A stretch of DNA of 64,000 nucleotides from an uncultured Gammaproteobacteria bacterium (GTDB taxonomy: Bacteria > Patescibacteriota > Patescibacteriia > SBBC01 > CAIJZX01): positions 116,012-180,011 of the forward strand of contig CAYNGY010000002.1 of assembly GCA_964397195.1 (NCBI GenBank), read 5' to 3'. The position numbers and the translations under genes were made by a program. Below are positions 1,441-40,961 of this stretch, in pieces; positions within the stretch are counted from its first letter, which is position 1; each line of letters starts with the position of its first letter. The notes beneath the pieces were generated by a model. The model searched no databases. It saw only the letters and a list, made by a program, of their open reading frames with translations, and had not been told where the DNA came from.

Positions 1441-3442
1441 CTCCATCTTGATTGCGGTTTTCACACTCGTTCCGTTCGGGACGAGGGTTTCGGCGCGTGA
1501 GCTGACGCCGACGTATCCACGCATCGCCAATTACTTTTTAACGCGGACCATTTCACCAGCCCAAGCCGCGGAATTAGCTCGTTGGGATGTCGTTATTCTC
1601 GGACTTGATAACCAATATACCAATCCGGCGGTTTTTTCGATCATGCGTCAGAAAAATCCCGACATTATTATTTTAGCGTACGTGTTGTCGGAAGAATTCC
1701 CGTCCGGCTACGATGGCCTGAGTGATCCAAATTATCCGCTGGTCAAACTCCGGAGCGGCATTGCCGACTCGTGGTGGTTACGTGATGCGAGCGGGGCGAA
1801 GACTGGTTTCTGGGCCGGGGCGAACATGTTGAATGTCACGAACCAAGTGTCGATGGTGAACGGGTATCGTTGGAATACTTACTTGGCGCATTTTGTGAAA
1901 GACTCTGTCCTCTCGACTGGGCTGTGGGATGGCGTCTTTTACGACAATGTCTTTAATGATGTGTCGTGGGTCAACGGCGGCAATATTGATACAAATAATG
2001 ACCATGTGGCCGACCTTGGGTCTTCGGCTGATGCTGCCTGGCGCGACGGCATGTCGACCTTACTGCGCACGACACGACAACTCGTCGGATCGGATGCCAT
2101 TATTATTGGGAATGGCGGCGGTCAGTACTACCCAGACATGAACGGTCGGCTGATCGAGCAATTCCCATCGTCGCTTGATGGCGGCTGGACCGGGGCGATG
2201 GCGAAGTACGCAGACGTTTTACGGCGCGGTTTATCGCCGTCGATTGTGGTGGTCAATCGCATGACCGCTAATGGGTTGCCCACCGACTATCAAGGGATGC
2301 GGTACGGATTAACGAGTACGCTACTGGAAAATGGGTTCTTCAGCTTTGACGAAGGTGCGGTTCGGCATGCAGCCCTCTGGCAATTCGATGAGTTTACCGC
2401 CTATCTCGGTTCACCAATCGGGAACGCGCGACGAATTTGGCCGACAGCAGCCGCGTCATATGAGACCGGCGTTTGGCGACGTGATTTTGCGAATGGGATC
2501 GTGTTAGTGAATTCAACCGATGCACCGCGCACCGTTACGCTCGGCGATGGATATGAAGAATTGCGGGGAACACCGTCCGATGTGAATGGTGGACGAATAG
2601 TAACGAGTGTGACCCTCGCTGGCCATGATGGACGAATTCTGCGCAAGCGTCAGGTTGTTCTCGATACCGGCACGTATGAAAATGGATCACTGATCAGTGT
2701 CTTCAAGGGTGATGGCACGGCGACACGGAGCGGATTCTTTAGTTATGATCCGACTCAGCCAGCCGGCGCGGCCCTGATTAAACAAGATGTGAACCATGAC
2801 GGCGAGACGGATGTCATCCGCGCTGATGCGGGGGCGATTACCGTTCGCAATGCGCATAACCAAGTACTCGGTTCATTCCGTCCGTTTGGCGCGTATCGAG
2901 GCGCATTGTCGATTGCCGTGGGTGATGTGAATGGTGATCGGATCGACGATATCGTCGTGTCGCCGCTGAGCGGAAAAAACCAGAAGATTTCTTTCTTTAC
3001 CTATACTGGGCGACGACTCTGGGCATCATGGCGGCCGTTTAAACGCGATTACACCGGCGGGCCGTCGGTGACGCTGGCAGACATGAATGGCGACGGTCGA
3101 TTGGAAGTACTGGCGGCGGCCGGTCGCGGCGCCGATCCGCGTGTCTCGGTCTTCACGCTCCGCGGTCGACAGGTGGCGAGTTTCTTAGCCTACGCTCGTT
3201 CCTTTAAGGGCGGTGTGCATCTGGCGGCCGGAGATCTGACCGCGGACGGAGTACCGGAAATTGTAACGGTTCCGGCGCGGAGCGGCGGCCCGCATGTTCG
3301 TATTTTCTCCAATCGCTATCAACCGGTCGGAAGCTTCTTCGCCCTCGCTAAGTCCTACCGCGGCGGATTACAAGTTGCTATTACCGATGTTGACCATACC
3401 GGCGATAACCGGATCGTTATTTCGACCCCATATGTCTATTAA
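1421..3442 (+). CDS. secreted glycoside-hydrolase-like (TIM-barrel GHL/GH114-like) protein with C-terminal FG-GAP/VCBS repeats
   Basis: Signal peptide, then an N-terminal TIM-barrel-like region (NYFLTR...WDVVILGLD). The C-terminus has several DxNGDGxxD/E calcium-binding-like FG-GAP repeats (DVNGDRIDDIVV, DMNGDGRLEVL, DLTADGVPEIV). Confidence 0.55.
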   Translation: MRRFWRNSILIAVFTLVPFGTRVSARELTPTYPRIANYFLTRTISPAQAAELARWDVVILGLDNQYTNPAVFSIMRQKNPDIIILAYVLSEEFPSGYDGLSDPNYPLVKLRSGIADSWWLRDASGAKTGFWAGANMLNVTNQVSMVNGYRWNTYLAHFVKDSVLSTGLWDGVFYDNVFNDVSWVNGGNIDTNNDHVADLGSSADAAWRDGMSTLLRTTRQLVGSDAIIIGNGGGQYYPDMNGRLIEQFPSSLDGGWTGAMAKYADVLRRGLSPSIVVVNRMTANGLPTDYQGMRYGLTSTLLENGFFSFDEGAVRHAALWQFDEFTAYLGSPIGNARRIWPTAAASYETGVWRRDFANGIVLVNSTDAPRTVTLGDGYEELRGTPSDVNGGRIVTSVTLAGHDGRILRKRQVVLDTGTYENGSLISVFKGDGTATRSGFFSYDPTQPAGAALIKQDVNHDGETDVIRADAGAITVRNAHNQVLGSFRPFGAYRGALSIAVGDVNGDRIDDIVVSPLSGKNQKISFFTYTGRRLWASWRPFKRDYTGGPSVTLADMNGDGRLEVLAAAGRGADPRVSVFTLRGRQVASFLAYARSFKGGVHLAAGDLTADGVPEIVTVPARSGGPHVRIFSNRYQPVGSFFALAKSYRGGLQVAITDVDHTGDNRIVISTPYVY

Positions 3443-4811
3443 CCCAACAACTCCAGCCGAACCACAACGCCCGTTGCATCATCGCCTGTTGGCAATTGTG
3501 GCGCCGCTGCTGGCTCACGCACATCATCGTCGGTACCACGGTCGCCCGCACCATCTGGTGATTGATACATTTTTGAATGTGGCGATGTGGGGGCTTGTGG
3601 CCTGGATTATTGTCCTAGCGGTCGTGAAGGTTGCCACAACCACACCTCAAGTCATGTGGGATGTCTCGACGGTGACGAGTGGCCAGGCCGTGACCGCCAC
3701 GCTGACAGTGACGGCGCCTAGCACCGGACGCATTGGTGATGTTCAAGCCGACGTGATTGTGCCGACCGGATGGTTGGTGGATGAAGCCACAGCGCAGAGT
3801 CTGGGGGCCATGGAACGACGAGCGGTGCGAACGATAACTTTTCACCTCGTCCCAGTTGCTGCACCAAGCGCAGCAGTCAATCTGGTGACCCACCTGGCGT
3901 GGACCGTCGCCGGGGCGTCTTTAGAGACCGAACATGTTCAACATATCTCTGTGCAGGGGACGAGTGGTGCGTTGACGTTGACTGCGCCGGCTTCGGTCCG
4001 ATCCGGTCAGATGATTCCGTTGACGTTGACTGCGCCGACGAGTCTGGCCGACCTTCGGTTGATGAAGGTCGTGTCGGTGACCCTGCCAAAGCATGTGACA
4101 CGCGTCAGTACAGAGCCGTCGATTGACGGGACAACGTGGACCATCGAGTCAAACACGGTTGAGGCTAAGACGTTGATCATGCGAGTGACGACATCGTTAC
4201 CGGCCGGAACCCGACTTCGTTTTTCGGCCACCTTAGCTTGGGGTGTCGGTGAGGCCCGGTTGGTGCAAGTCACCCGGACGACTGATGTCCTGATTACGGC
4301 TACGAGCGGTGAAGAGGTGGTGAATGGTCCGAGTACGACGGCGGTCACCTTCGCGGCGGAACTTCGCTATACCGGCGCCTCGGGCGTGCAGTTTGGTTAT
4401 GGACCATTGCCGCCGATCGTCGGTCAGGAAACGGTGTACCGGGCGTTCCTCTACGTTCGTCCAGGGTCGGCCGATGGCCACGGAGCGACCGTGACCATGT
4501 CATTACCGGCCGGGACGCGTTGGATTGGCCATTCGAGTTTAACCGGTGGTTCGCGGGTGGTCTGGAACTCTTCGGCCCGGACAATCACCTGGCAGATTGG
4601 TGAGTTAGCGGCGAATGTTGCGCCGCTGATGGCGAGTTTTGACCTCGGGTTGACCCCAAAAACGACCCAACGTGGGAGCGTCGTGACCATGACCGGGCCG
4701 GCCAAGCTGACATATCAATCTGATCGCGACGGCCTACAATCGAGCACCGCAGCTGCGCTGACGACCGCCAGCGTTGATGGCGGAAAACCAAGTTTGGCTA
4801 CAATTCGCTAA
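3432..4811 (+). CDS. membrane-anchored hypothetical protein with DUF11-like beta-sandwich repeats
   Basis: The track ORF starts at 3294 inside the previous gene. The first in-frame ATG after the upstream stop is 3432; an alternative is 3585 just before a TM helix. Repeated TLTVTAPS.../LTLTAP... segments resemble the DUF11 'conserved repeat domain'. Confidence 0.4.
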   Translation: MSINPTTPAEPQRPLHHRLLAIVAPLLAHAHHRRYHGRPHHLVIDTFLNVAMWGLVAWIIVLAVVKVATTTPQVMWDVSTVTSGQAVTATLTVTAPSTGRIGDVQADVIVPTGWLVDEATAQSLGAMERRAVRTITFHLVPVAAPSAAVNLVTHLAWTVAGASLETEHVQHISVQGTSGALTLTAPASVRSGQMIPLTLTAPTSLADLRLMKVVSVTLPKHVTRVSTEPSIDGTTWTIESNTVEAKTLIMRVTTSLPAGTRLRFSATLAWGVGEARLVQVTRTTDVLITATSGEEVVNGPSTTAVTFAAELRYTGASGVQFGYGPLPPIVGQETVYRAFLYVRPGSADGHGATVTMSLPAGTRWIGHSSLTGGSRVVWNSSARTITWQIGELAANVAPLMASFDLGLTPKTTQRGSVVTMTGPAKLTYQSDRDGLQSSTAAALTTASVDGGKPSLATIR

Positions 4812-4845
4812 AAAAGCGGTTTTTCCAGCGAAAATTCAGCTAGGC

Positions 4846-4874
4846 TTGACAAAATAGAGGGTTTGGTGTAAGGT
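4846..4874 (+). promoter_or_regulatory. sigma70-like promoter (TTGACA-N17-TAAGGT) for the second GT4 gene
   Basis: TTGACA at 4846-4851 and TAAGGT at 4869-4874, followed by GTCAATTT at 4880-4887 and the ATG at 4893. Confidence 0.3.
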
Positions 4875-4892
4875 CTCGGGTCAATTTTGTTT

Positions 4893-6101
4893 ATGTCTCC
4901 ATCGCTCACTATCGCCATGATCGGCCAAAAGGGCATGCCCGCTATTCACGGCGGGATCGAACGTCATGTTGAAGAACTGTCGGTTCGTTTAGCGTCCATG
5001 GGGCATACGGTGACCGTGTACACTCGGCCGTATTTTACGCCGACCGGCATGAAATCGTATCGCGGCGTCCGCCTTATTTCGTTACCGTCGATCCGTTCAA
5101 AGCATCTCGACGCCATCAGCCACACGTTTGCGGCGACGATTCACGCCGTGCGGTCTGGAGCGGATATCATTCACTACCACGGTGTCGGCCCGTCGATTTT
5201 ATCGTTCCTGCCAAAACTCCTTCGATCGAAAGCAAAAGTTGTTTCAACGTTTCATTGTATTGATCGGAAGCATCAGAAGTGGGGATTTATCGCCCGACAG
5301 TTTCTTCGTCATGGCGAATGGTCGTCGGTGACTCATCCGGATGAAACGATTGTGGTTTCAAAAACCCTGAAGAAGTACGTCAAACATATGTTCGGCAAGC
5401 AGGCGACGTATATTCCGAATGGTGTTGAGATTCCGCGAACATCCGCGCGGCGACGCTCACCAACGCTCCGCCGGTTCAATCTAACGCCGGGTGAATATAT
5501 TATTTCGGTCTCGCGCTTGATTCCGCACAAAGGCATCCATCATCTCATTTCTGCCTTTCGTCAGGTCTCAACGAACCACCGACTGGTGATTGTCGGCGAC
5601 GGATTTTATACGGATGAGTACGTTCAGTACCTCCACGAGCTCGCCGGCGATGATGCGCGCATTGTTTTCACCGGTTTTCAGAGTGGTCAGGATCTTCGTG
5701 ACTTGTTCTCGCACGCGGCGCTGTACGTTCTCCCATCACAAGCGGAAGGATTACCGATCGCTCTACTCGAAGCGGCCAGCTTCGGAGTCGGGATTGTGGC
5801 CAGTGATATTCCGGAAAATCGGGAAGTGATTCATGCGGATCGTTCACCAATCGGTCTGACGTTCGTGACCGGTGACATTGACGACCTGCGGCGTGTCCTG
5901 ACGGATGCCCTGCGGCGCCCAGCGGCCATGCGGAACATGGCCCAGCGGGCCAAAAAAGTCGTTGCCGAGCATTACCAATGGCGTGATGTGGCGACGCAGA
6001 TGGTAGCGGTCTACACTAGGCTCTGTAATCGTCCGACATCCGTTCGGGTGGCGTCGGCTGGTTCGATGCGGTCCCGTTCGGTTGCGGTGAACGCGGCGTA
6101 A
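4893..6101 (+). CDS. GT4-family glycosyltransferase
   Basis: The track start at 4887 is TTG; the first ATG is 4893. MIGQKGMPAIHGGIERHVEEL and the C-terminal EGLPIALLEAASFGVGIVASDIPENRE are typical GT4 motifs. Confidence 0.8.
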   Translation: MSPSLTIAMIGQKGMPAIHGGIERHVEELSVRLASMGHTVTVYTRPYFTPTGMKSYRGVRLISLPSIRSKHLDAISHTFAATIHAVRSGADIIHYHGVGPSILSFLPKLLRSKAKVVSTFHCIDRKHQKWGFIARQFLRHGEWSSVTHPDETIVVSKTLKKYVKHMFGKQATYIPNGVEIPRTSARRRSPTLRRFNLTPGEYIISVSRLIPHKGIHHLISAFRQVSTNHRLVIVGDGFYTDEYVQYLHELAGDDARIVFTGFQSGQDLRDLFSHAALYVLPSQAEGLPIALLEAASFGVGIVASDIPENREVIHADRSPIGLTFVTGDIDDLRRVLTDALRRPAAMRNMAQRAKKVVAEHYQWRDVATQMVAVYTRLCNRPTSVRVASAGSMRSRSVAVNAA

Positions 6102-6126
6102 GGTCGACGTGCTATACTGTATCGGT

Positions 6127-7353
6127 ATGCGGTATCTTTTTGGTTTCCTCGGTCTGGTCGTGGCGATTGGATGTGCGGCTCCGACCGCATGGGCGCTGAC
6201 GCCGACGCAGCGCTATCTTGGATATATGGTTATTTCGGCCGATACGCCGGAAGCGGTGTGGTACGTTGACCCGCGGCGGAAAGAACGAGTTCCGGCCACA
6301 ACACTGACCGACATCCGTACTATTTTGCGGACGCGAGCGGCCAAAGTGAAAGTAGCCGATTTAAAGCGTCTCCCGTTAGTTGGGACCCTGACGGTCGGAG
6401 ATCTGAATTATCGTCGTCAATTAGCGGGTCGATATATTGTTGTGACGGATCGGAAGAATGAAGCGTGGTACATTACGCCCCGCACCAAGCGTCGTATTCG
6501 CATCGGGAACGGGCAGGTGGCGGTTACCTTTGCGCGAAGTCAGGCCCTGACCATTTCGGCCGCGGACCTAGCGGAGATTCCGGCGCCGCCAAATATTCGT
6601 TTGGTAACCGGATCGGTGAAATCAAGTCGTGGTTCGTTTACGACTGAGCGACTCGAGTTTGCCTGGAATGATCCGGGGATACGCATCATGACCGACACGG
6701 CGAATACGAGTGATTGCAAAGGAAATTGCCCGGTCATTTCGCTCGGGTCGTATATCAGTCGTCGGGCAGCAGTGGCGGGGATCCATGGCACCTATTTCTG
6801 TCCGCAAGATTATGGAGCCTGTGCGACAAAACGAAACTCGTACGATTTTCCGGTCTGGAACAGTTTTACTAAATCGTGGCGAAATGAAGGGCGGATAAAA
6901 TATACGTCCCAGCCGATTGTGGCCTTTGATACTTCGAACCGGCCGTTCTTGTATGCTGAATCACGGCAGTTTAAGAGTCAGGCTGGGTTTGCGGCGACGT
7001 TTGCTGATGATTCAATTGCTGCTGGTGGCACGGGTGTTTTACAGGCGGCGTTCAGTAACGGGCCGATGCTCATTCGGAACGGCGTCTATGTTCTCAAGGG
7101 GAACCAGCTTGATACCAAACAGGCGACCGTGAAAAGTGCTCGTGGGGTACTTGGTTGGAAAGGAACGACGATGGTGTTCTTTGTGGTCCATGGGGCCACC
7201 GTCACGGATGCGGCCTCAGTTGCCCAAGCGCTTGGTTTAGAAAACGCCGTCAATCTTGATGGCGGTGGCTCGACAGCGATGTACACGGCCGGACGATACA
7301 TTCTTGGTCCGGGTCGGAATCTTCCGAACGCCATTTTGATTACTCGTCGGTAG
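6127..7353 (+). CDS. phosphodiester glycosidase (NAGPA-like/DUF2233) family secreted protein
   Basis: The track start at 6109 is GTG; the ATG is at 6127. Signal peptide, then C-terminal NGPMLIRNG...VNLDGGGSTAMY, characteristic of phosphodiester glycosidase domains. Confidence 0.65.
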   Translation: MRYLFGFLGLVVAIGCAAPTAWALTPTQRYLGYMVISADTPEAVWYVDPRRKERVPATTLTDIRTILRTRAAKVKVADLKRLPLVGTLTVGDLNYRRQLAGRYIVVTDRKNEAWYITPRTKRRIRIGNGQVAVTFARSQALTISAADLAEIPAPPNIRLVTGSVKSSRGSFTTERLEFAWNDPGIRIMTDTANTSDCKGNCPVISLGSYISRRAAVAGIHGTYFCPQDYGACATKRNSYDFPVWNSFTKSWRNEGRIKYTSQPIVAFDTSNRPFLYAESRQFKSQAGFAATFADDSIAAGGTGVLQAAFSNGPMLIRNGVYVLKGNQLDTKQATVKSARGVLGWKGTTMVFFVVHGATVTDAASVAQALGLENAVNLDGGGSTAMYTAGRYILGPGRNLPNAILITRR

Positions 7354-10222: not shown

Positions 10223-10342
10223 ATGACCACGGAGATTCAAACCCAATCGAAAAAGACGCTGACGACGTATCTGACGATTGCCATCGGACTGTCGGTCTTG
10301 GTGATCGGATTTTTCGTTTTTCTTTTTACCGGCGGGAAATAA
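10223..10342 (+). CDS. possible 39-aa single-TM small membrane peptide
   Basis: ATG 10223, reading MTTEIQTQSKKTLTTYLTIAIGLSVLVIGFFVFLFTGGK, stop at 10340. It lies directly after the C39 gene and is not in the ORF track (below 60 aa). Confidence 0.25.
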   Translation: MTTEIQTQSKKTLTTYLTIAIGLSVLVIGFFVFLFTGGK

Positions 10343-10378
10343 TGATAATAAAAAGACCGGGCTCAGTGTCGAGCCCGG
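10343..10378 (-). terminator. rho-independent terminator (hairpin CCGGGCTC/GAGCCCGG followed by a T-run on the minus strand)
   Basis: An 8-bp GC stem at 10357-10378 with a T-rich tract (RC of 10343-10354) downstream of the minus-strand gene 10404..10847. Confidence 0.5.
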
Positions 10379-10403
10379 GCGTTCGAGTTTCCGCTTCGCT
10401 TCG

Positions 10404-10847
10404 CTAGTGGGGAGCGGGTGGAGCACTCGGGGTGCGTTCGGAGACGTCGGGTGTCTCCGGATTCGTGGGGAGCGGGAGATGACTCGGGTGTTGGCCGATG
10501 CGGTGGAGGATCCCGACGAGGAGCGGGTGCATCTGACGTTTCCGGAGCTGTCGGTAGATCTCTTCGATCTCCTTGGCGGTGATCTTGGCCTGTTCGACGG
10601 TCGGGCGGCTGTGTCGATGGTGGACCCACCGGGTATGGTGGTAGTTGGTGATATGCCCGACGCCGAGCGGGACGTCGATGGCCTGGAAGAACTCGGTTAT
10701 GTGCAAGGCCAACGTGCCTTCGTCCGTCTTCGGTCCGTACGGTGTCCAGTGTGTCAGTGACTCGACCGGTGGGAGCAGGTGCAAGTACGCGCGGAGCGCG
10801 GTGGCGTCGAAGATGCGCAGTGGCGGTATCGGTGGTGACGTTGGCAT
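10404..10847 (-). CDS. hypothetical protein in a high-GC island
   Basis: 147 aa. The third codon position is about 80% G/C in this frame, and the gene is co-oriented with its neighbour. The overlapping ORFs 10363..10860(-) and 10407..10760(+) look like GC artefacts. Confidence 0.45.
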   Translation of the reverse strand: MPTSPPIPPLRIFDATALRAYLHLLPPVESLTHWTPYGPKTDEGTLALHITEFFQAIDVPLGVGHITNYHHTRWVHHRHSRPTVEQAKITAKEIEEIYRQLRKRQMHPLLVGILHRIGQHPSHLPLPTNPETPDVSERTPSAPPAPH

Positions 10848-35837: not shown

Positions 35838-35914
35838 TGGTACCGGGGGGCGGGATCGAACCGCCGACCTCGGGCTTATGAGTCCCGCGCTCTAACCAAC
35901 TGAGCTACCCCGGC
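35838..35914 (-). tRNA. tRNA-Met (anticodon CAT; elongator type, tRNA-Ile2 not excluded)
   Basis: RC reads GCCGGGGTAGCTCAGTTGGTTAGAGCGCGGGACTCATAAGCCCGAGGTCGGCGGTTCGATCCCGCCCCCCGGTACCA. Cloverleaf with D-arm TAGCTCAGTTGGTTAGAGC, anticodon loop CTCATAA, T-loop TTCGATC and an encoded CCA. Confidence 0.8.
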
Positions 35915-36057
35915 AAGATGTTGTATTGTGTTTGTTTTAGTGGGCCTTTTTTATTGTTTCTACCTAGGTTCCGGGGCGTGTCTGTTCCTGCGGAACATGG
36001 ACCCGCCCGTCTCGCCCCGCGAAAACAGAAGCAGTTCTGTTTTCTTGTGGGCTCGAC

Positions 36058-36080
36058 CCAACTGAGCTACCCCGGCAAGA
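36058..36080. repeat. 23-bp direct repeat of the tRNA-Met 5' end (CCAACTGAGCTACCCCGGCAAGA), also present at 35896-35918
   Basis: The two copies match exactly and lie 162 bp apart. The interval between them contains the hairpin AAAACAGAA-GCAG-TTCTGTTTT. Confidence 0.6.
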
Positions 36081-36144: not shown

Positions 36145-37494
36145 CTAGAACGAAAAACGTTCATAGTGGATGTGCCGGTCTTCGTATCCGAGGCCTCGGA
36201 GTTGAGTCACCACGGCCTTCATCATCATCGGCGGCCCACACAAGAATACTTCCCGGTCATAGAAGTCTGGGACGAGGCGAACAATCTTTTCTCGGTCAAT
36301 ATATCCCGACTCATACCCAGGGAGTGGAGCATTCAAGAAATACACAATGCGGAAGGCGCCATGTTGCGTGTAGGTGTCGAGCTCGGCGCGGAGGGCAATA
36401 TCTTGTACCGTTCGGTTGGCATAGAGCAGGACCGTATCCCGATCTGTAATGTGCTCGTCGTCGAGCAGCGCCCGGAGCGGGGTAATGCCAATTCCGCCGG
36501 CAATCATTAATATTTTTTTCCGATTCGCCCGGGAGAGAATAAATTGCCCCAATGGGCCGTCAATCAGCACTGGTGTACCCGGGCGGAGTTGTTCGAGCGT
36601 TTTTGTGTAGTCACCGCTGGCCTTCATGGAGAAACGGAGGAAATGGCCATTCGGTCCGGCGGAAAAAGAAAACGGGTGTGACTGCCAGCCGTGGGTGCGG
36701 CTCAGGAAACGAAGATTCGCGTACTGGCCGGGCTTGAAGCCAAAACGATCGAGATGCTTGCCAATAATATAGACCGATGTGACGCCGAGGACTTCCGTCT
36801 GGACATGATCGACCCGAAATTGGTGGAACCAGATGAGCCAGAGTGGTCGAATCCAGCGGTAGATGACGAAACTCCCGCCAACAACGCAGTTGAGGGTTAG
36901 CCAGTAGATCCACGGCCCGCCACTCCGCACATCGCCGGTGTGCAATTGATGGAGGAAGATGAGTCCAACTGCGACATACGTCAGGAGATGGACGAAATAC
37001 CAGGTCTCGTACGGAACTTTTTTTCGGACAATAACTATGGAACTCAAAATGACGACGATCAGGAGAACCGATCCGAGGTAGGAGTTAAAAACGTGCTCGC
37101 GGTTGGTGAGGTAATCGACGAACTGGCCGATGAGCGATGATCCGTTAGACCTCGCTGTGCCGTAGGTCAGTAAAAAAGGATGAGCAATCATCAGTGAGGC
37201 GATGGTGTACCCGATCCAGCGGTGAACAGCATTCAGCTTATCGAACCCAAATGGTCGCTCGATGAACGGCGCTCGGCCGATGAAGAGCAGTTGCAGGAGT
37301 AAGGCAAATTGTCCGAGCAGTCCGGTGAGTCGGCCAAAGGCAAACCAGATATTTCCGTCGCCCGGGTTGTCGAGATAATACGCCGATCCAGTCTGCCAAA
37401 TCCAGATGATTGCTAAAACATTCGCCGCCAATATACTGACGACCGCATACTGAGCGAGTGAGTGGCGATTTGGCCAGCGGAAATAGATGGTCAT
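36145..37494 (-). CDS. ferric-reductase-like transmembrane flavocytochrome (FRE domain + FAD-binding + NAD(P)-binding)
   Basis: 449 aa. N-terminal 6-TM region with paired His, then a ferredoxin-reductase-type FAD/NAD domain (HPFSF, GGIGITP). Confidence 0.75.
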   Translation of the reverse strand: MTIYFRWPNRHSLAQYAVVSILAANVLAIIWIWQTGSAYYLDNPGDGNIWFAFGRLTGLLGQFALLLQLLFIGRAPFIERPFGFDKLNAVHRWIGYTIASLMIAHPFLLTYGTARSNGSSLIGQFVDYLTNREHVFNSYLGSVLLIVVILSSIVIVRKKVPYETWYFVHLLTYVAVGLIFLHQLHTGDVRSGGPWIYWLTLNCVVGGSFVIYRWIRPLWLIWFHQFRVDHVQTEVLGVTSVYIIGKHLDRFGFKPGQYANLRFLSRTHGWQSHPFSFSAGPNGHFLRFSMKASGDYTKTLEQLRPGTPVLIDGPLGQFILSRANRKKILMIAGGIGITPLRALLDDEHITDRDTVLLYANRTVQDIALRAELDTYTQHGAFRIVYFLNAPLPGYESGYIDREKIVRLVPDFYDREVFLCGPPMMMKAVVTQLRGLGYEDRHIHYERFSF

Positions 37495-37997
37495 GGTCGT
37501 TCGAGCGCGATACGGGCGACGGATGGCGTTTCGATGCCGGGCTCAAAAATCAAATGAAGCCCGCGGGCGTCGGATGGAATCAAGAAGGAAAGTTCTTCTT
37601 GAAGACTATCGCCATCGAGTAATGGACCGGAGAGCTGAGTCGAGCCAGATGGGTTGGTGGTTACATCGTAGACCCGTCCGCGATCATCTTTGGCATGAAA
37701 ATGGAGGAGCGGAATGACCTGGATCGTGTGGCCTGTATTATTTCCTAAAAACACTGTGGTCACGAGGTATACGTGGTCGGCTGGGGCGACGATGGGGCTG
37801 GCGCCGGGTGTTCGTTTTGCATCGAGAGCGCGCAAGGCCACACGGTCAATCATGACCGTATCTCCGAGTGTGGCCGTGGCCGATTGAAAATGGAATGTCG
37901 GTTGACCCGGCCAGAAATATATTGCTGCCAACGTCATGCCCGCGGTTACGACGGCGGTGATCAGGACGGTGATAAAGGTGGCGTGGCGCGTCGTCAT
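37491..37997 (-). CDS. membrane-anchored DUF4352-like Ig-fold protein
   Basis: N-terminal TM helix. YLVTTVFLGNNTGHTIQV...LHFHAKDDRGRVY resembles DUF4352. ATGA overlap with the FRE gene. Confidence 0.35.
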   Translation of the reverse strand: MTTRHATFITVLITAVVTAGMTLAAIYFWPGQPTFHFQSATATLGDTVMIDRVALRALDAKRTPGASPIVAPADHVYLVTTVFLGNNTGHTIQVIPLLHFHAKDDRGRVYDVTTNPSGSTQLSGPLLDGDSLQEELSFLIPSDARGLHLIFEPGIETPSVARIALERP

Positions 37998-38000
37998 GAC

Positions 38001-38966
38001 TTATGGTGCGAATGGGCCAATGTAGTAGGCTTGGAGCGTTGTATTGAGTGCTTTGCTGGAGTGGGAATGGCCACCGGCTGACCCAATAAACGCGCTGTAC
38101 ATATTCTTGCCACAGTATGGAACGATGACGTCGCCTCCGGGGTGTTGGCTTGGCTTACTGACGTAGGCGGTGACGTTGTAGACCTTATTGAGCGGGCTGA
38201 GGTAGACCCAGCAATTGCTCCGGGTGCTATGCGCCGCCACGTCTGCCGTTGTGCATGATCCGCCTTGACCACACGCGGGTGGTGTTGGGGTTGGCGTGGG
38301 TGTTGGGGTTGGTGGTGGGGCGGTATTGGTGTTGGCTGGCGGCGTACTGGTATTCGTTGGTGTGCTGGGCGTATGTGTGGTTGGTGAGGAAGGATTGGAA
38401 TTCGTTGGGGTGTTGGCGGTTGGTTTGGCGGTATTTTTATTTGGGGTGCTTGTTTTTGTGTTGGTGTTTTTGGTTGGCGTTGTCGGTTTGGTAGGAGTCG
38501 GAGTTGGCGTGGTGGCGACTTGTGTCGGGGTGGTCGCGGAAACAGATATTGGATCAGATGCGGCAACGTTCAATGAATTGACGGTGGTGACGGTGTAGAC
38601 GTAGGTGGTGCTGGGGAGCAATACGAAGTCGATAAACTGGGTTCCGTAGACCACGCCAATAAATGTGTCATTGCGGGTGATCGCATATCCGTGGGCCCCG
38701 ACGACGGCGTCCCAGCTCACCGTCACGTCGGTACCAGTGACAGACGTGGTGACGTTTGCTGGTGAGGACAGGAGAACCGACGGAGTGCTATTGGTGTTTA
38801 CACTGGCGTTGGTGACCGTGGTCTCGTTGGTAGTCGTGTTAGTTGGGGCGATCGTTTCGATCGAGAGCGAGTGCGCATTCGGCCATCGTCCCGGACCTTC
38901 ATGCTTGAGCCACCAACCAAAAACCACCAGCGAGGAGCAGATAATGAAAACAATAATAATTCTCAT
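38001..38966 (-). CDS. secreted FN3 domain protein with Thr/Pro-rich linker and C-terminal cytochrome b5-like heme-binding domain
   Basis: Signal/TM, then an FN3-like TGTDVTVSWDAVVGAHGYAITRN, a TPTPTP low-complexity linker, and the C-terminal cyt b5 signature ...SQHPGGDVIVPYCGKNMYSAFIGSAGGHSHS (HPGG plus a second His). Confidence 0.7.
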   Translation of the reverse strand: MRIIIVFIICSSLVVFGWWLKHEGPGRWPNAHSLSIETIAPTNTTTNETTVTNASVNTNSTPSVLLSSPANVTTSVTGTDVTVSWDAVVGAHGYAITRNDTFIGVVYGTQFIDFVLLPSTTYVYTVTTVNSLNVAASDPISVSATTPTQVATTPTPTPTKPTTPTKNTNTKTSTPNKNTAKPTANTPTNSNPSSPTTHTPSTPTNTSTPPANTNTAPPPTPTPTPTPTPPACGQGGSCTTADVAAHSTRSNCWVYLSPLNKVYNVTAYVSKPSQHPGGDVIVPYCGKNMYSAFIGSAGGHSHSSKALNTTLQAYYIGPFAP

Positions 38967-39868
38967 GGGGCGGTGACGGTGATTGTGCCGGTCTGGGTCG
39001 AGCCATCGCTTTTTTTGTAGGTGTACGTTCCAACGGATGAGAAGGTCACGGTTTTACTGGTGTGATCATGATCGAGCTTAACCGACGTGCTGATGCTCGG
39101 AGTGAAGCGGAGAATAACCTCGTCGCCCTCGCCACTGGTGTAGGTAAAGGTGACGGTATCGGTGGGGTGAATCGTTAGAGACAATGGCGTGAAGACTCCA
39201 TGTTCGGTGACGGTGACCACATAGTTCTGTGGTGTATATGGGGTGGTATTGGTATTCGTCGTGGTGTTCGTATTGGTCGGGACGCTTGGAGCGGGAGCCG
39301 AGTTTGTGTTCTCATTTGTGGTTGGGGTAGTGTTTGTTGGGGCCGCGGTATTCGTATTTGTCTGCGTATTGGAATTCTTGGGAGCGGCGTTCTTGTTGGT
39401 CGTTTTCGTGGGCACCGACGCGGGTTTGGGAGTGACGACGGCGACCGGGTTTTTGATCGTGATGAGAATAAAGTTGGACGGTTGCGAAAACCGACCTAAA
39501 CCATCAATGGCTTGGATGTAATACCCATATTGCCGACTCGCAAGAACGAAGCCATCGGCAAAACGAGGTTCGGTGACTTCAGCGATCAGGAGGTTGTTGC
39601 GGACGACTCGATAACGTTTCACTTCGGGGTTACTGGAGGCATCCCAGGTGAGAAAGACGGTGTGGGGGAGCGTGGTCGTTCCGGAAAGATGTGTTGGGGC
39701 CGGAAGTGGGCTTGTAGCGGCGGTCAATACTTCAGCCGGCGGCGGTGTCGGCGTATTGAGGCCAACTTCGCTAACGACAACGGGCGTTCGCGTCCGTTGT
39801 GGCCACAATGCCGCGACGCCGGTAAAGAGCGAGACGGCCACGAGGGCATAAAACAAGTTTATTTTCAT
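38963..39868 (-). CDS. secreted FN3 domain protein with Thr/Asn-rich linker and C-terminal cupredoxin-like domain (ligands not conserved)
   Basis: Signal peptide, an FN3-like TVFLTWDASSNPEVKRYRVVRNN, and a TNTNT linker. The C-terminal beta-sandwich resembles the cupredoxin fold (F.P..L.I...DTV.F) but lacks the Cys/His/Met copper ligands. Confidence 0.5.
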   Translation of the reverse strand: MKINLFYALVAVSLFTGVAALWPQRTRTPVVVSEVGLNTPTPPPAEVLTAATSPLPAPTHLSGTTTLPHTVFLTWDASSNPEVKRYRVVRNNLLIAEVTEPRFADGFVLASRQYGYYIQAIDGLGRFSQPSNFILITIKNPVAVVTPKPASVPTKTTNKNAAPKNSNTQTNTNTAAPTNTTPTTNENTNSAPAPSVPTNTNTTTNTNTTPYTPQNYVVTVTEHGVFTPLSLTIHPTDTVTFTYTSGEGDEVILRFTPSISTSVKLDHDHTSKTVTFSSVGTYTYKKSDGSTQTGTITVTAP

Positions 39869-39973
39869 ACCAAAAACAGGATGTTATCGCCAGCGACTAT
39901 ACCATATTCTGGCTGGGAATTAAATGGACACGCCCTGAAAACAAAAACACCCCACGGTTTAGTGAGATCCTTT

Positions 39974-40048
39974 TGGTTGCGGGGGTGGGAATTGAACCCA
40001 CTACCTGCGGATTATGAGCCCGCCATGCAGCCGTTACACTTCCCCGCG
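39974..40048 (-). tRNA. initiator tRNA-fMet (CAT)
   Basis: RC reads CGCGGGGAAGTGTAACGGCTGCATGGCGGGCTCATAATCCGCAGGTAGTGGGTTCAATTCCCACCCCCGCAACCA. C1-A72 mismatch, G-C-rich anticodon stem, and the same ends as E. coli tRNA-fMet (CGCGGGG...CCCCGCAACCA). Confidence 0.75.
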
Positions 40049-40070: not shown

Positions 40071-40766
40071 CTATTTTGGCAAGTCCGCTGTTTCCGCGCT
40101 GGCCGCGTCGACCAAGTGCTCTAGGTCGTTGATGACTATGGTCGTCAACGATTCCGTGATGATATCCGGCTGTTGTTGAAGGTCTTGTCGGGCGTGTGGG
40201 CCAAGTCCGAGCGTATGCATTCCGGCTGCCTTCGCTGCGCACACGCCGGCTAAACCATCTTCGATGACGATACATCGATTCGGCCTGACCCCGAGATGTT
40301 CGGCGGCGGCGAGATATCCTTCGGGGTCTGGTTTCCCGCGCCGAACGTCATCCGCGCCGATGATGATTTGGACATAATGGTCGATGCCGAGCAGTTTCAA
40401 AATCGTTTCGACGGCGGTGTGACGCGAGGCTGAAACCACGGCGATTGACCAGCCGTGCCGAGCGCCACTCAACAAGAGCTCCCGACCGCCGGGGATGGCA
40501 TCAGCGCGACGGGGGAGTTGGCGCAAAAACTCCTCCCATTTTTCAGTAATGGCATGTTGAATGTCGAGCGGTTGGCCATGTTCATCGGCGAGCGTCGAGA
40601 ACCATTCTTCGTTTTTGACCCCCGAAAAGCGGCGCGAAATTTCTTGGGGCTCAATCGTAATCCCATGTCGGGCCAAAACGGTTGATTCGACTTCCGCGTG
40701 TAAAGACTGGGTGTCGGAGAGGACACCATCGAGGTCGAAGAGAAGCGCGCGACCGGAAGAAGACAT
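40071..40766 (-). CDS. HAD-superfamily hydrolase, subfamily IA (beta-phosphoglucomutase-like)
   Basis: Motif I LLFDLDGVLSDT and motif IV GADDV. The start was trimmed to the ATG at 40766, because the track ORF runs through tRNA-Leu. Confidence 0.75.
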   Translation of the reverse strand: MSSSGRALLFDLDGVLSDTQSLHAEVESTVLARHGITIEPQEISRRFSGVKNEEWFSTLADEHGQPLDIQHAITEKWEEFLRQLPRRADAIPGGRELLLSGARHGWSIAVVSASRHTAVETILKLLGIDHYVQIIIGADDVRRGKPDPEGYLAAAEHLGVRPNRCIVIEDGLAGVCAAKAAGMHTLGLGPHARQDLQQQPDIITESLTTIVINDLEHLVDAASAETADLPK

Positions 40767-40784
40767 GTGATGATAATAGGTGTT

Positions 40785-40870
40785 TGGTGCCGGAGAAGGG
40801 AGTCGAACCCTTAATCCCTTACGGGAACGCGATTTTGAGTCGCGCGCGTATGCCATTCCGCCACTCCGGC
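40785..40870 (-). tRNA. tRNA-Leu (anticodon CAA)
   Basis: RC reads GCCGGAGTGGCGGAATGGCATACGCGCGCGACTCAAAATCGCGTTCCCGTAAGGGATTAAGGGTTCGACTCCCTTCTCCGGCACCA. Long variable arm, anticodon loop CTCAAAA. Confidence 0.8.
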
Positions 40871-40961
40871 GTCGCGCCACTGAGTAAAGCATGGACAGAA
40901 AAACTGGTCAACGGCTATTTTGCGACCGAGGGTAAAAAATGGTATACTCAGCGGGCTTTTT

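Follow-up and report, generated by a model that had tools for sequence, protein, structure and literature searches.

Structures have been determined for bacterial homologues of the NADPH oxidases (NOX), but their physiological electron acceptor is not known. One of them, SpNOX of Streptococcus pneumoniae (PDB entries 8QQ7 and 8QT6), joins a six-helix di-heme domain to flavin adenine dinucleotide (FAD) and NAD(P)H domains in a single chain marked by four heme-ligating histidines and the motifs HPFS, GxGxxP, and CGP. Its outer heme is unusually exposed, it reduces cytochrome c directly and shows very weak ferric reductase activity, and the authors of its cryo-EM study consider that O2 is perhaps not what it reduces physiologically and that there could be an acceptor of protein nature (PMC11564096, a paper in which the word "operon" does not occur). 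Here, we analyze an operon of four minus-strand genes (positions 36145–39868) in a 64,000-nucleotide stretch of DNA, hereafter the window (contig CAYNGY010000002.1 of assembly GCA_964397195.1), from an uncultured bacterium that GTDB places in the Patescibacteriota, also known as the candidate phyla radiation (CPR). The operon encodes a reductase that shares the single-chain build, the histidines, and the motifs of SpNOX, together with a cytochrome b5 protein predicted to lie outside the cell and two further predicted surface proteins. Compared with SpNOX, the reductase has low overall similarity (E 1e-22), carries an extra N-terminal helix region of ~50 residues, and has a gene that is coupled to others encoding predicted surface proteins of redox and Ig-like types.

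In the MsrPQ system (YedYZ of Escherichia coli), a heme protein with a ferric-reductase domain likewise feeds a dedicated periplasmic partner, but MsrQ lacks a dehydrogenase domain and is fed by quinol or Fre, and its partner MsrP, a molybdoenzyme, serves in methionine sulfoxide repair. Among the products of the operon or its flanking genes, no molybdopterin oxidoreductase domain like that of MsrP was found. The MsrQ-like systems of Actinobacteria (Meheust et al. 2021, PMC8238504) contain an orthologous reductase, 35–39% identical and carrying PF01794 and PF00175, which also stands beside a small extracytoplasmic redox protein with a proposed outward flow from NAD(P)H; MsrQ-like proteins with NAD-binding domains have been proposed to feed extracytosolic flavoproteins (PMC8238504). 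The acceptor in those systems is an FMN-binding protein flavinylated by ApbE, whereas the acceptor proposed here is a heme b5, and no open reading frame (ORF) for an FMN_bind or ApbE protein occurs anywhere in the 64-kb window. By definition, the operon is therefore not a member of the MsrQ-like systems, although it is similar in its proposed working. Extracytosolic flavinylation is strikingly under-represented in the CPR (PMC8238504). An earlier note on this DNA had instead likened the operon to the logic of the eukaryotic ferric reductases (FRE) or NOX plus b5. The comparison holds insofar as the reductases belong to one superfamily and b5 reductase is a homologue of the dehydrogenase domain, but it is loose, in that eukaryotic b5 is a cytosolic-face donor reduced by a soluble flavoprotein, whereas the b5 studied here is predicted to lie beyond the membrane, after the transmembrane hemes. 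MsrPQ and the actinobacterial MsrQ-like/FMN-bind/ApbE systems are the better counterparts.

Within the CPR, a preprint on MAPR origins (bioRxiv 10.1101/2021.11.17.468889, 2021) reports PF01794 in 1427 of 7645 CPR genomes and PF00173 within 10 kb of it in 185; it did not see the co-localization outside the CPR and describes the function as unknown. The apparent ancestral operon described there combines a two-component system with the reductase pFre, a MAPR-like b5 ligated by Tyr, and a pair of b5-like proteins. In the window, the PF01794 and PF00173 genes lie 0.5 kb apart and all products have transmembrane segments, which places the operon among these pFre/b5 clusters. Compared with the extended form, it has no two-component system, no cytb5MY (the MAPR-like b5 with a Tyr ligand), and no Cys-rich protein, and its b5 is of the classical bis-His type. 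The pairing of reductase and b5 is thus not new in itself, and the statement in the earlier note that such a module is rarely described in bacteria needs to be qualified accordingly. The genome paper on Vampirococcus merely lists b5 among the electron carriers of the CPR. In the related literature examined, including passages of the preprint, we found no account of a copper-less cupredoxin-fold domain or of its fusion to b5 arrays, of the DUF4352 and FN3-stalk parts, of the replacement of b5 by a cupredoxin, of the equivalence to the actinobacterial flavin systems, or of the link to the acceptor of SpNOX.

Results

Operon structure and conserved linkage of reductase and b5

The four minus-strand genes of the earlier note were confirmed as ORFs: gene 1 (38963–39868, 301 residues), gene 2 (38001–38966, 321 residues, Pfam Cyt-b5), gene 3 (37491–37997, 168 residues, Pfam DUF4352), and gene 4 (36145–37494, 449 residues, Pfam Ferric_reduct, FAD_binding_8, and NAD_binding_1). 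The note had also claimed 4-nt overlaps at every junction. These exist, as ATGA, between genes 1 and 2 and between genes 3 and 4, but the junction of genes 2 and 3 reads TAA-GTC-ATG, so that gene 3 starts 3 nt past the stop codon of gene 2. The four genes form a real, tight operon.

The conservation of this arrangement was examined with two baits, the reductase and a b5 alignment (loci are numbered with an L prefix). For the b5 bait, metagenome contigs were scanned and the flanks of the loci were annotated with local hidden Markov models. With the reductase as bait, the full gene order, that is, the gene for the cupredoxin-fold C-terminal domain (CTD) described below, FN3-b5, DUF4352, and reductase, was found in a Yonathbacteria genome (L006), and a close variant with an extra four-FN3 protein and a second b5-FN3 protein in a member of the Paceibacterota (L007). 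In L001–L004, L008, L042, and L086, the next gene upstream of the reductase encodes an anchored b5, and two further loci (L088 and L089) combine the b5/reductase pairing with a DUF4352 gene directly upstream of the reductase. The b5 bait gave 23 loci in which the b5 is at least 51% identical, 21 of them with enough downstream DNA to be tested, and in every one of these 21 the reductase is the next gene downstream on the same strand. The 21 loci correspond to 14 reductase clusters at <90% identity. Four gene orders were seen: CTD-b5-DUF4352-reductase, b5-DUF4352-reductase, CTD-b5-reductase, and b5-reductase. Of the co-occurrence of FRE, b5, and FN3 genes in other genomes that the earlier note had proposed to look for, the pairing of reductase and b5 extends to 14 lineages. 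More distant b5 domains (at most 41% identical), found mostly in proteins of ~570–600 residues, have no directly adjacent same-strand reductase gene, the sole exception being L115, a short contig in which a reductase fragment immediately precedes the b5.

The close spacing recurs as well, with 4-nt overlaps or 3-nt gaps in L001, L007, and L178, and the gene encoding the closest relative of the CTD is followed, with the same 4-nt overlap, by a gene for a 306-residue b5 protein. Orthologues of gene 1 are present in L006, L088, L090, L096, L097, and L178, and a DUF4352 gene is the next one upstream of the reductase in L006, L007, L088–L094, L096, and L099–L101. The conserved synteny, taken together with the fusions of b5 and CTD described below, rules out chance adjacency.

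The reductase

The 449-residue product of gene 4 matches Pfam Ferric_reduct with 66.7 bits, and FAD_binding_8 and NAD_binding_1 also above cutoff. Its best PDB matches are the SpNOX structures 8QT6 and 8QQ7, over aa 64–449. In an alignment of 24 sequences, His91, His105, His169, and His182 are invariant. They are located on helices 3 and 5 with spacings of 14 and 13 residues, the same as those of H69/H83 and H129/H142 in SpNOX, with which they align, and are predicted to ligate two b hemes within a six-helix ferric-reductase domain, as the pairs His91/His169 and His105/His182. HPFS (273–276, FAD), GGIGITP (333–339, NAD(P)H), and CGP (419–421) are invariant or nearly so in the same alignment, and the dehydrogenase domain that contains them (~aa 221–449) is predicted to be cytoplasmic. 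The Pfam matches and the invariant motifs together bear out the di-heme transmembrane, FAD, and NAD(P)H domains ascribed to this protein in the earlier note, and by its sequence it is an SpNOX-like flavocytochrome, that is, the long NOX/FRE form of the ferric-reductase-domain superfamily. A total of 2320 proteins are homologous to it at E<=1e-10, and those nearest to it among the named ones come from Candidatus Yonathbacteria, Paceibacterota, and the "Patescibacteria group", from which the window is assigned to a CPR genome. A scan of species-representative genomes agreed with this and also found orthologues with 35–39% identity in Saccharibacteria, in Chloroflexota, and in numerous Streptomyces and Amycolatopsis.

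The predicted tethered cytochrome b5

The 321-residue product of gene 2 consists of an anchor (aa 3–21), an FN3 domain (~aa 62–148), a Thr/Pro stalk (aa 146–227), and a b5 domain (aa 228–321; heme domain 38004–38285, minus strand). The last of these matches Pfam Cyt-b5 (PF00173) over aa 240–318 with 41 bits against a cutoff of 23.7 (E 1.9e-10). Both halves of the HPGG...GHSHS signature are present. The axial ligands, H275 of HPGG and H302, which is the second histidine of GHSHS, are invariant in the relatives; the first histidine of GHSHS is not, in an alignment of the closest relatives. Both ligands are in register with those of solved structures, namely the b5 domain of Scs7 (4ZR0) and the bacterial b558 of Ectothiorhodospira vacuolata (1CXY), which match with E 1e-6 to 2e-6, and they are also aligned with the ligand positions of 2IBJ. 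By these alignments, the domain is a classical bis-His cytochrome b5 with predicted heme binding. Four cysteines (C232, C238, C252, and C285) are invariant in the closest relatives, and two of them align with both cysteines of 1CXY.

The resemblance to b558, a bacterial bis-His b5 (E 1.9e-6), ends with the domain itself. The latter is a free soluble protein of ~90 residues, whereas the b5 of the window forms the head of an anchored FN3-stalk protein, has an extra CxxxxxC pair, and is linked in an operon to a reductase. The stalk is 82 residues long with 38% Thr and 27% Pro, and that of gene 1 has 31% Thr and 20% Asn, in keeping with the TP-rich and TN-rich stalks of the earlier note. A family profile that includes the FN3 segments of both proteins matches FN3 domains in the PDB (titin, chitinase A1, RPTPs) with E 1e-19 to 1e-25, and 12 of 13 members of the family match Pfam fn3, although the segment of the 301-residue protein alone falls below the Pfam threshold (E 0.0045).

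Each of the three predicted surface proteins begins with one hydrophobic segment of ~19 residues preceded by a basic residue. These segments, which in the products of genes 1 and 2 had been taken for signals, resemble uncleaved signal anchors rather than textbook signal peptides. The b5 domain is predicted to be outside the cell on the basis of its N-terminal anchor, the FN3 domain, the Thr/Pro stalk, the four invariant cysteines, and the analogy with the proteins that occupy the same slot in other operons. Two related Patescibacteria contigs carry disulfide machinery (DsbB and DsbA, or VKOR and DsbA) 2–5 kb from the reductase (L089 12286–13345 and L171 8604–9741), which fits the invariant cysteines of an exported b5.

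A cupredoxin-fold domain without copper ligands

Gene 1 encodes a protein with a matching layout: an anchor (aa 3–21), an FN3 domain (~aa 50–140), a Thr/Asn/Pro stalk (aa 139–212), and the CTD (aa 213–301; 38966–39232, minus strand). The CTD, like the 301-residue protein as a whole, matches no Pfam family. When its 91 C-terminal residues were used as query, a word-index search gave no relatives, whereas an exhaustive HMMER search gave 64 cluster representatives, ~56 of which are true relatives; the weakest matches are genuine multi-cupredoxin proteins. An AlphaFold2 model of the CTD, built from a 43-sequence alignment, has eight strands and a predicted local distance difference test (pLDDT) score of 94, and a model of the whole protein from the single sequence (pLDDT 43) was not used. 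Foldseek aligned the CTD model with plastocyanin, pseudoazurin, amicyanin, and FtrB at TM-scores of 0.65–0.73, with a probability of 1.00 for the first three, and the family profile matches plastocyanin with E 5e-4.

According to this model, the CTD shares the eight-stranded Greek-key fold of FtrB and of the type-1 cupredoxins plastocyanin, pseudoazurin, and amicyanin, but differs from the latter in having Glu, Lys, Asp, or Gly at all four ligand positions and in not belonging to Pfam Cupredoxin_1. Glu250, which is invariant in the family, aligns with His37, the first copper-ligand histidine of plastocyanin, and Asp237, Pro257, and Asp266 are near-invariant. The remaining plastocyanin ligand positions hold no Cys, His, or Met, the Cys/His/Met loop being replaced by KKSDGSTQTG, and the 301-residue protein contains no cysteine at all. 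Since the ligands His...Cys...His...Met are missing, the CTD is not a blue copper protein, and the earlier description of a cupredoxin-like C-terminal sandwich without copper ligands proved apt. The CTD defines a small cupredoxin-fold family that has no Pfam entry.

In every true relative, the CTD forms the extreme C-terminus. In 18 of the ~56 representatives, the same chain carries between one and five Pfam Cyt-b5 domains, mostly behind an N-terminal anchor, which suggests that b5 arrays in these relatives act as relays, and other members of the family carry FN3, DUF4215, InlB-B-repeat, or Big_7 modules. A third architecture (P0144, P0148, P0158, P0162, P0169, P0175, P0177, and P0190) consists of an anchor, a domain of ~150 residues, a linker, and the CTD; the ~150-residue domain has the motif NxCPxEPLxVY...W.RIH and no Pfam match. 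On four independent contigs, a DoxX-family gene comes immediately after such a gene: those for fusions of one or more b5 domains to a CTD in L173 (1045–4312), L175 (3241–4779), and L177 (631–1799), and in L151 (439–1312) a single-b5 gene, which overlaps the DoxX gene by 4 nt. L173 and L177 also share a divergent gene for a protein of ~190–206 residues without a Pfam match. In the membrane, the b5/CTD module may thus have DoxX as another partner.

The DUF4352 protein

Gene 3 encodes an anchor (aa 8–26) and an Ig-like domain of the DUF4352 family (PF11611, aa 44–155, 31.9 bits against a cutoff of 25.9), with no stalk. A sequence search found no solved relative, and the literature on DUF4352, which concerns the mycobacterial Mpr phage resistance, gave no lead here. 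One NCBI gene call for the product of 37491–37997 comprises 120 residues, starting at the internal Met49 and omitting the anchor. The 168-residue form is preferred, since homologues of 171–192 residues retain the anchor.

Partners of the reductase family elsewhere

In other lineages, the slot beside the reductase is filled differently. A true cupredoxin with an anchor is encoded directly upstream of the reductase in L013 (5455–5943), L015 (5459–5899), L022 (5506–5949), and L028 (5479–5949), and nearby on the opposite strand in L009 (4693–5286). These proteins, from Saccharibacteria, Harrisonbacteria, and other Patescibacteria, have the His/Cys/His/Met ligands intact and match Pfam Copper-bind and Cupredoxin_1. 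In 26 actinobacterial and Chloroflexi loci, the reductase gene is followed by a gene for a secreted FMN_bind protein, often with ApbE after it. The reductase family is thus repeatedly paired with a small extracytoplasmic one-electron carrier whose cofactor depends on the lineage, being flavin, copper, or heme b. As both the cupredoxin and the FMN-binding protein are extracytoplasmic, their presence in the same slot favors an extracytoplasmic location for b5.

The closest full relative of the operon is L090, and it carries the two-component system and the MAPR-like b5 of the extended CPR form described in the preprint. Its genes at 2978–6283 encode an OmpR-type response regulator, a histidine kinase, a secreted Cys-rich protein of 357 residues without a Pfam match, and a MAPR-like (Tyr-type) b5. 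They are followed by FN3-CTD, FN3-b5, DUF4352, and reductase genes, and a TusA-like protein is encoded at 10250–10606. The operon of the window is a reduced four-gene version of this form, without the two-component system, the Cys-rich protein, the MAPR-like b5, and the TusA-like protein. When searched for other possible partners, the window yielded no true cupredoxin, no DoxX, no MAPR-like b5, and no Cys-rich protein of the L090 type.

Flanking sequences

The operon is bounded on either side by a minus-strand tRNA(CAT) gene found with ARAGORN, upstream at 39977–40048 (Rfam tRNA, 50.9 bits) and downstream at 35838–35914 (66.1 bits). The bracketing by two tRNA genes described in the earlier note therefore stands, whereas the assignment of one of them as initiator was judged by eye only. 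The end bases of the upstream tRNA, as read from the sequence, form a C1/A72 mismatch, as would fit an initiator tRNA; the downstream one could alternatively be tRNA-Ile2. A terminator-like hairpin (39968–39949) just past the upstream tRNA separates the tRNA and the operon as two units. The intergenic region before gene 1 (39869–39948, minus strand) was read by eye as a candidate operon promoter, with a possible element TGgTATAGT ~30 nt before the start codon. A consensus promoter scan made no call in 39869–39948, and no Shine-Dalgarno sequence is evident before gene 1. The region is likely, from its sequence, to carry the operon promoter.

A 30-nt direct repeat at 36051–36080 (minus strand), just past the stop codon of the reductase gene and 162 nt upstream of the intact downstream tRNA, is 93% identical to 35889–35918, which comprises the 5' part of that tRNA and 4 nt of flank; it looks like the remnant of a tRNA 5'-half. 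A mobile island inserted at the tRNA was considered and rejected, since the GC content of the operon equals that of the window (54.4% and 54.8%) and the duplicate is one-sided and does not bracket the operon. The genes further out encode a methyltransferase, a HAD hydrolase, ParA/ParB, and a TPR protein. The ORF listed for the HAD hydrolase (40071–40892, 273 residues) crosses a same-strand tRNA-Leu(CAA) at 40785–40870; a 229-residue form starting from an ATG near 40760 matches Pfam HAD_2 from residue 6 onward, and this ATG is probably the true start. Over the DNA that encodes the stalks, there are long ORFs in other frames (37994–38566, minus strand; 38249–38598, 38296–38598, and 39200–39521, plus strand), and the two stalk-coding regions share imperfect direct repeats of 17–28 nt. 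The ORFs were rejected as genes, and they and the repeats were regarded as by-products of the low-complexity Thr/Pro/Asn coding sequence.

Discussion

On balance, we consider it probable that the operon encodes a system, driven by NAD(P)H, that exports electrons across the membrane of a CPR bacterium to an extracellular acceptor. The outward electron delivery suggested in the earlier note is supported. Of the two findings that the note would have taken as refutation, neither was made, since both axial histidines of b5 are kept and all indirect indicators of topology put b5 outside the cell and not in the cytoplasm; in addition, the link between b5 and the reductase is conserved. From the observed domain identities, conserved cofactor ligands, operon structure, synteny, and domain fusions, we infer which way and between which partners electrons move, what the CTD and the DUF4352 protein do, and what kind of acceptor ends the chain, as follows. 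The flavocytochrome would oxidize NAD(P)H in the cytoplasm and pass the electrons through FAD and two stacked b hemes, first the inner and then the outer, to the outer face of the membrane. There, the outer heme would reduce the bis-His b5 of the 321-residue protein, which would be anchored in the same membrane and, held on its FN3 domain and Thr/Pro stalk of ~80 residues, could act as a tethered one-electron shuttle toward something further out. The CTD would most likely be the partner of b5 on the acceptor side, where it would bind the acceptor or let it dock; it is the likeliest acceptor-side module in view of its position at the distal end of the b5 arrays in the fusions and of its stalk of matching length here. 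The DUF4352 protein, being stalk-less and translationally coupled to the reductase, would probably be a membrane-proximal accessory subunit. The net outcome would be the regeneration of NAD(P)+, and the electrons may end on O2, on a metal, for instance Fe(III), or on a partner enzyme. This model agrees with the cryo-EM study of SpNOX, in view of the exposed outer heme and the direct reduction of cytochrome c reported there (PMC11564096).

The hemes of NOX-type proteins have potentials near −250 mV, those of b5 lie near 0 mV, and cupredoxins are found above +200 mV. Because the potentials rise from the NOX heme to b5 to cupredoxin, outward transfer would be downhill, and the inward flow of electrons from an external donor to NAD+ was rejected on thermodynamic grounds based on these general values.

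Several points weigh against this model. The long stalk seems awkward for docking on a heme at the membrane surface, and no gene related to an acceptor, such as one for a transporter or a terminal reductase, is present in or beside the operon. To our knowledge, CPR bacteria generally lack heme synthesis, which leaves the supply of the cofactor unexplained. The topology rests on hydrophobicity, the cysteine pattern, and analogy, and the electron path is proposed from sequence and model. More distant reductase loci of Patescibacteria (L010–L012, L017, L020, and L170–L172) have no adjacent b5 or cupredoxin, and the b5-CTD fusion genes that can be placed adjoin DoxX and not the reductase, so that the b5/CTD module is not exclusive to the latter. 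In the preprint, moreover, b5 lies within 10 kb in only 185 of the 1427 CPR genomes with PF01794 (bioRxiv 10.1101/2021.11.17.468889).

A possible but doubtful alternative is in fact a specific version of electron export with a named acceptor, in which the same path supplies electrons to extracellular Fe(III) or Cu(II) so that the metal can be taken up, and the CTD, with its invariant Glu and conserved Asp residues, the DUF4352 protein, or both hold it. The superfamily includes true ferric reductases, an invariant carboxylate occupies the position of the copper-ligand histidine in the CTD, and an Nramp transporter gene is located ~2 kb from the reductase in L170; MsrQ-like clusters, too, sometimes include the iron transporter VIT1 (PMC8238504). 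However, neither the operon nor its closest relatives contain or adjoin a gene for an iron or metal transporter, and SpNOX's activity as a ferric reductase is very weak and judged by its authors not to be physiologically relevant (PMC11564096). The likeness of the CTD model to FtrB of an iron-uptake system (8VUK, TMq 0.72, TMt 0.75) also points toward metal uptake, but it is at the level of the fold, with 12% identity.

It is rather improbable that the reductase is a stand-alone NADPH oxidase that reduces O2 directly at its outer heme to superoxide or peroxide, for scavenging or for attack on a host, with the surface proteins as adhesins or accessories. FN3 domains, Ig-like domains, and stalks are indeed typical of adhesins, and several related reductases occur alone. 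This explanation nevertheless fails to account for a bis-His b5 with invariant ligands that has been kept immediately upstream in at least 14 lineages, for the cupredoxins or FMN-binding proteins that stand in its place elsewhere, and for the b5-CTD fusions. SpNOX does consume O2 and was first described as a producer of superoxide, but its authors doubt that O2 is the physiological acceptor (PMC11564096).

We regard it as very unlikely that the b5-like domains are instead surface receptors by which a heme-auxotrophic CPR cell captures heme, for example, to load the reductase. The Pfam name of the domain is "heme/steroid binding", CPR bacteria usually lack heme synthesis, and the multi-domain arrays on the surface resemble the heme relays of the NEAT type. 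Yet the bis-His HPGG signature and the close match to redox b5 domains, including the periplasmic b558, indicate a tightly bound redox heme, and cupredoxins and FMN-binding proteins in the equivalent slot are sensible only for electron transfer. Finally, although unrelated genes are tightly packed in the compact genomes of the CPR and often overlap by 4 nt, there is next to no chance that four unrelated surface and membrane proteins are merely fortuitous neighbors, given a gene order kept in at least 14 lineages and all 21 testable loci and fusions that link two of the components.

Conclusions

If electrons are exported as we propose, the operon bears on the question of what bacterial NOX homologues reduce, since it names candidates for the physiological acceptor, namely an anchored b5 or a cupredoxin. 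It points to one modular principle, in which the partner of the same reductase differs, Actinobacteria having a flavinylated protein, Saccharibacteria a copper protein, and CPR bacteria of the Paceibacteria type a heme b5. It also brings to light a new small cupredoxin-fold family that lacks copper ligands and is genetically tied to b5 domains.

CPR bacteria, which make up a large and uncultivated share of bacterial diversity, are commonly regarded as fermenters that do not respire and have no electron-transport chain. For such cells, the proposed system would, if true, explain how NAD(P)H can be reoxidized at the cell surface. As a tentative extension, which we think unlikely as it stands, the CPR may conduct electrons outside the cell by way of heme-b proteins instead of c-type cytochromes or flavins, along a route that leads from a NOX-like pump oxidizing NAD(P)H through tethered b5 domains, single or in arrays of up to five, to the copper-less CTD as a terminal site of metal or substrate reduction. 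Were this the case, these bacteria would possess a respiration-like sink for reducing equivalents at their surface, possibly directed toward a host cell or toward mineral or metal acceptors.

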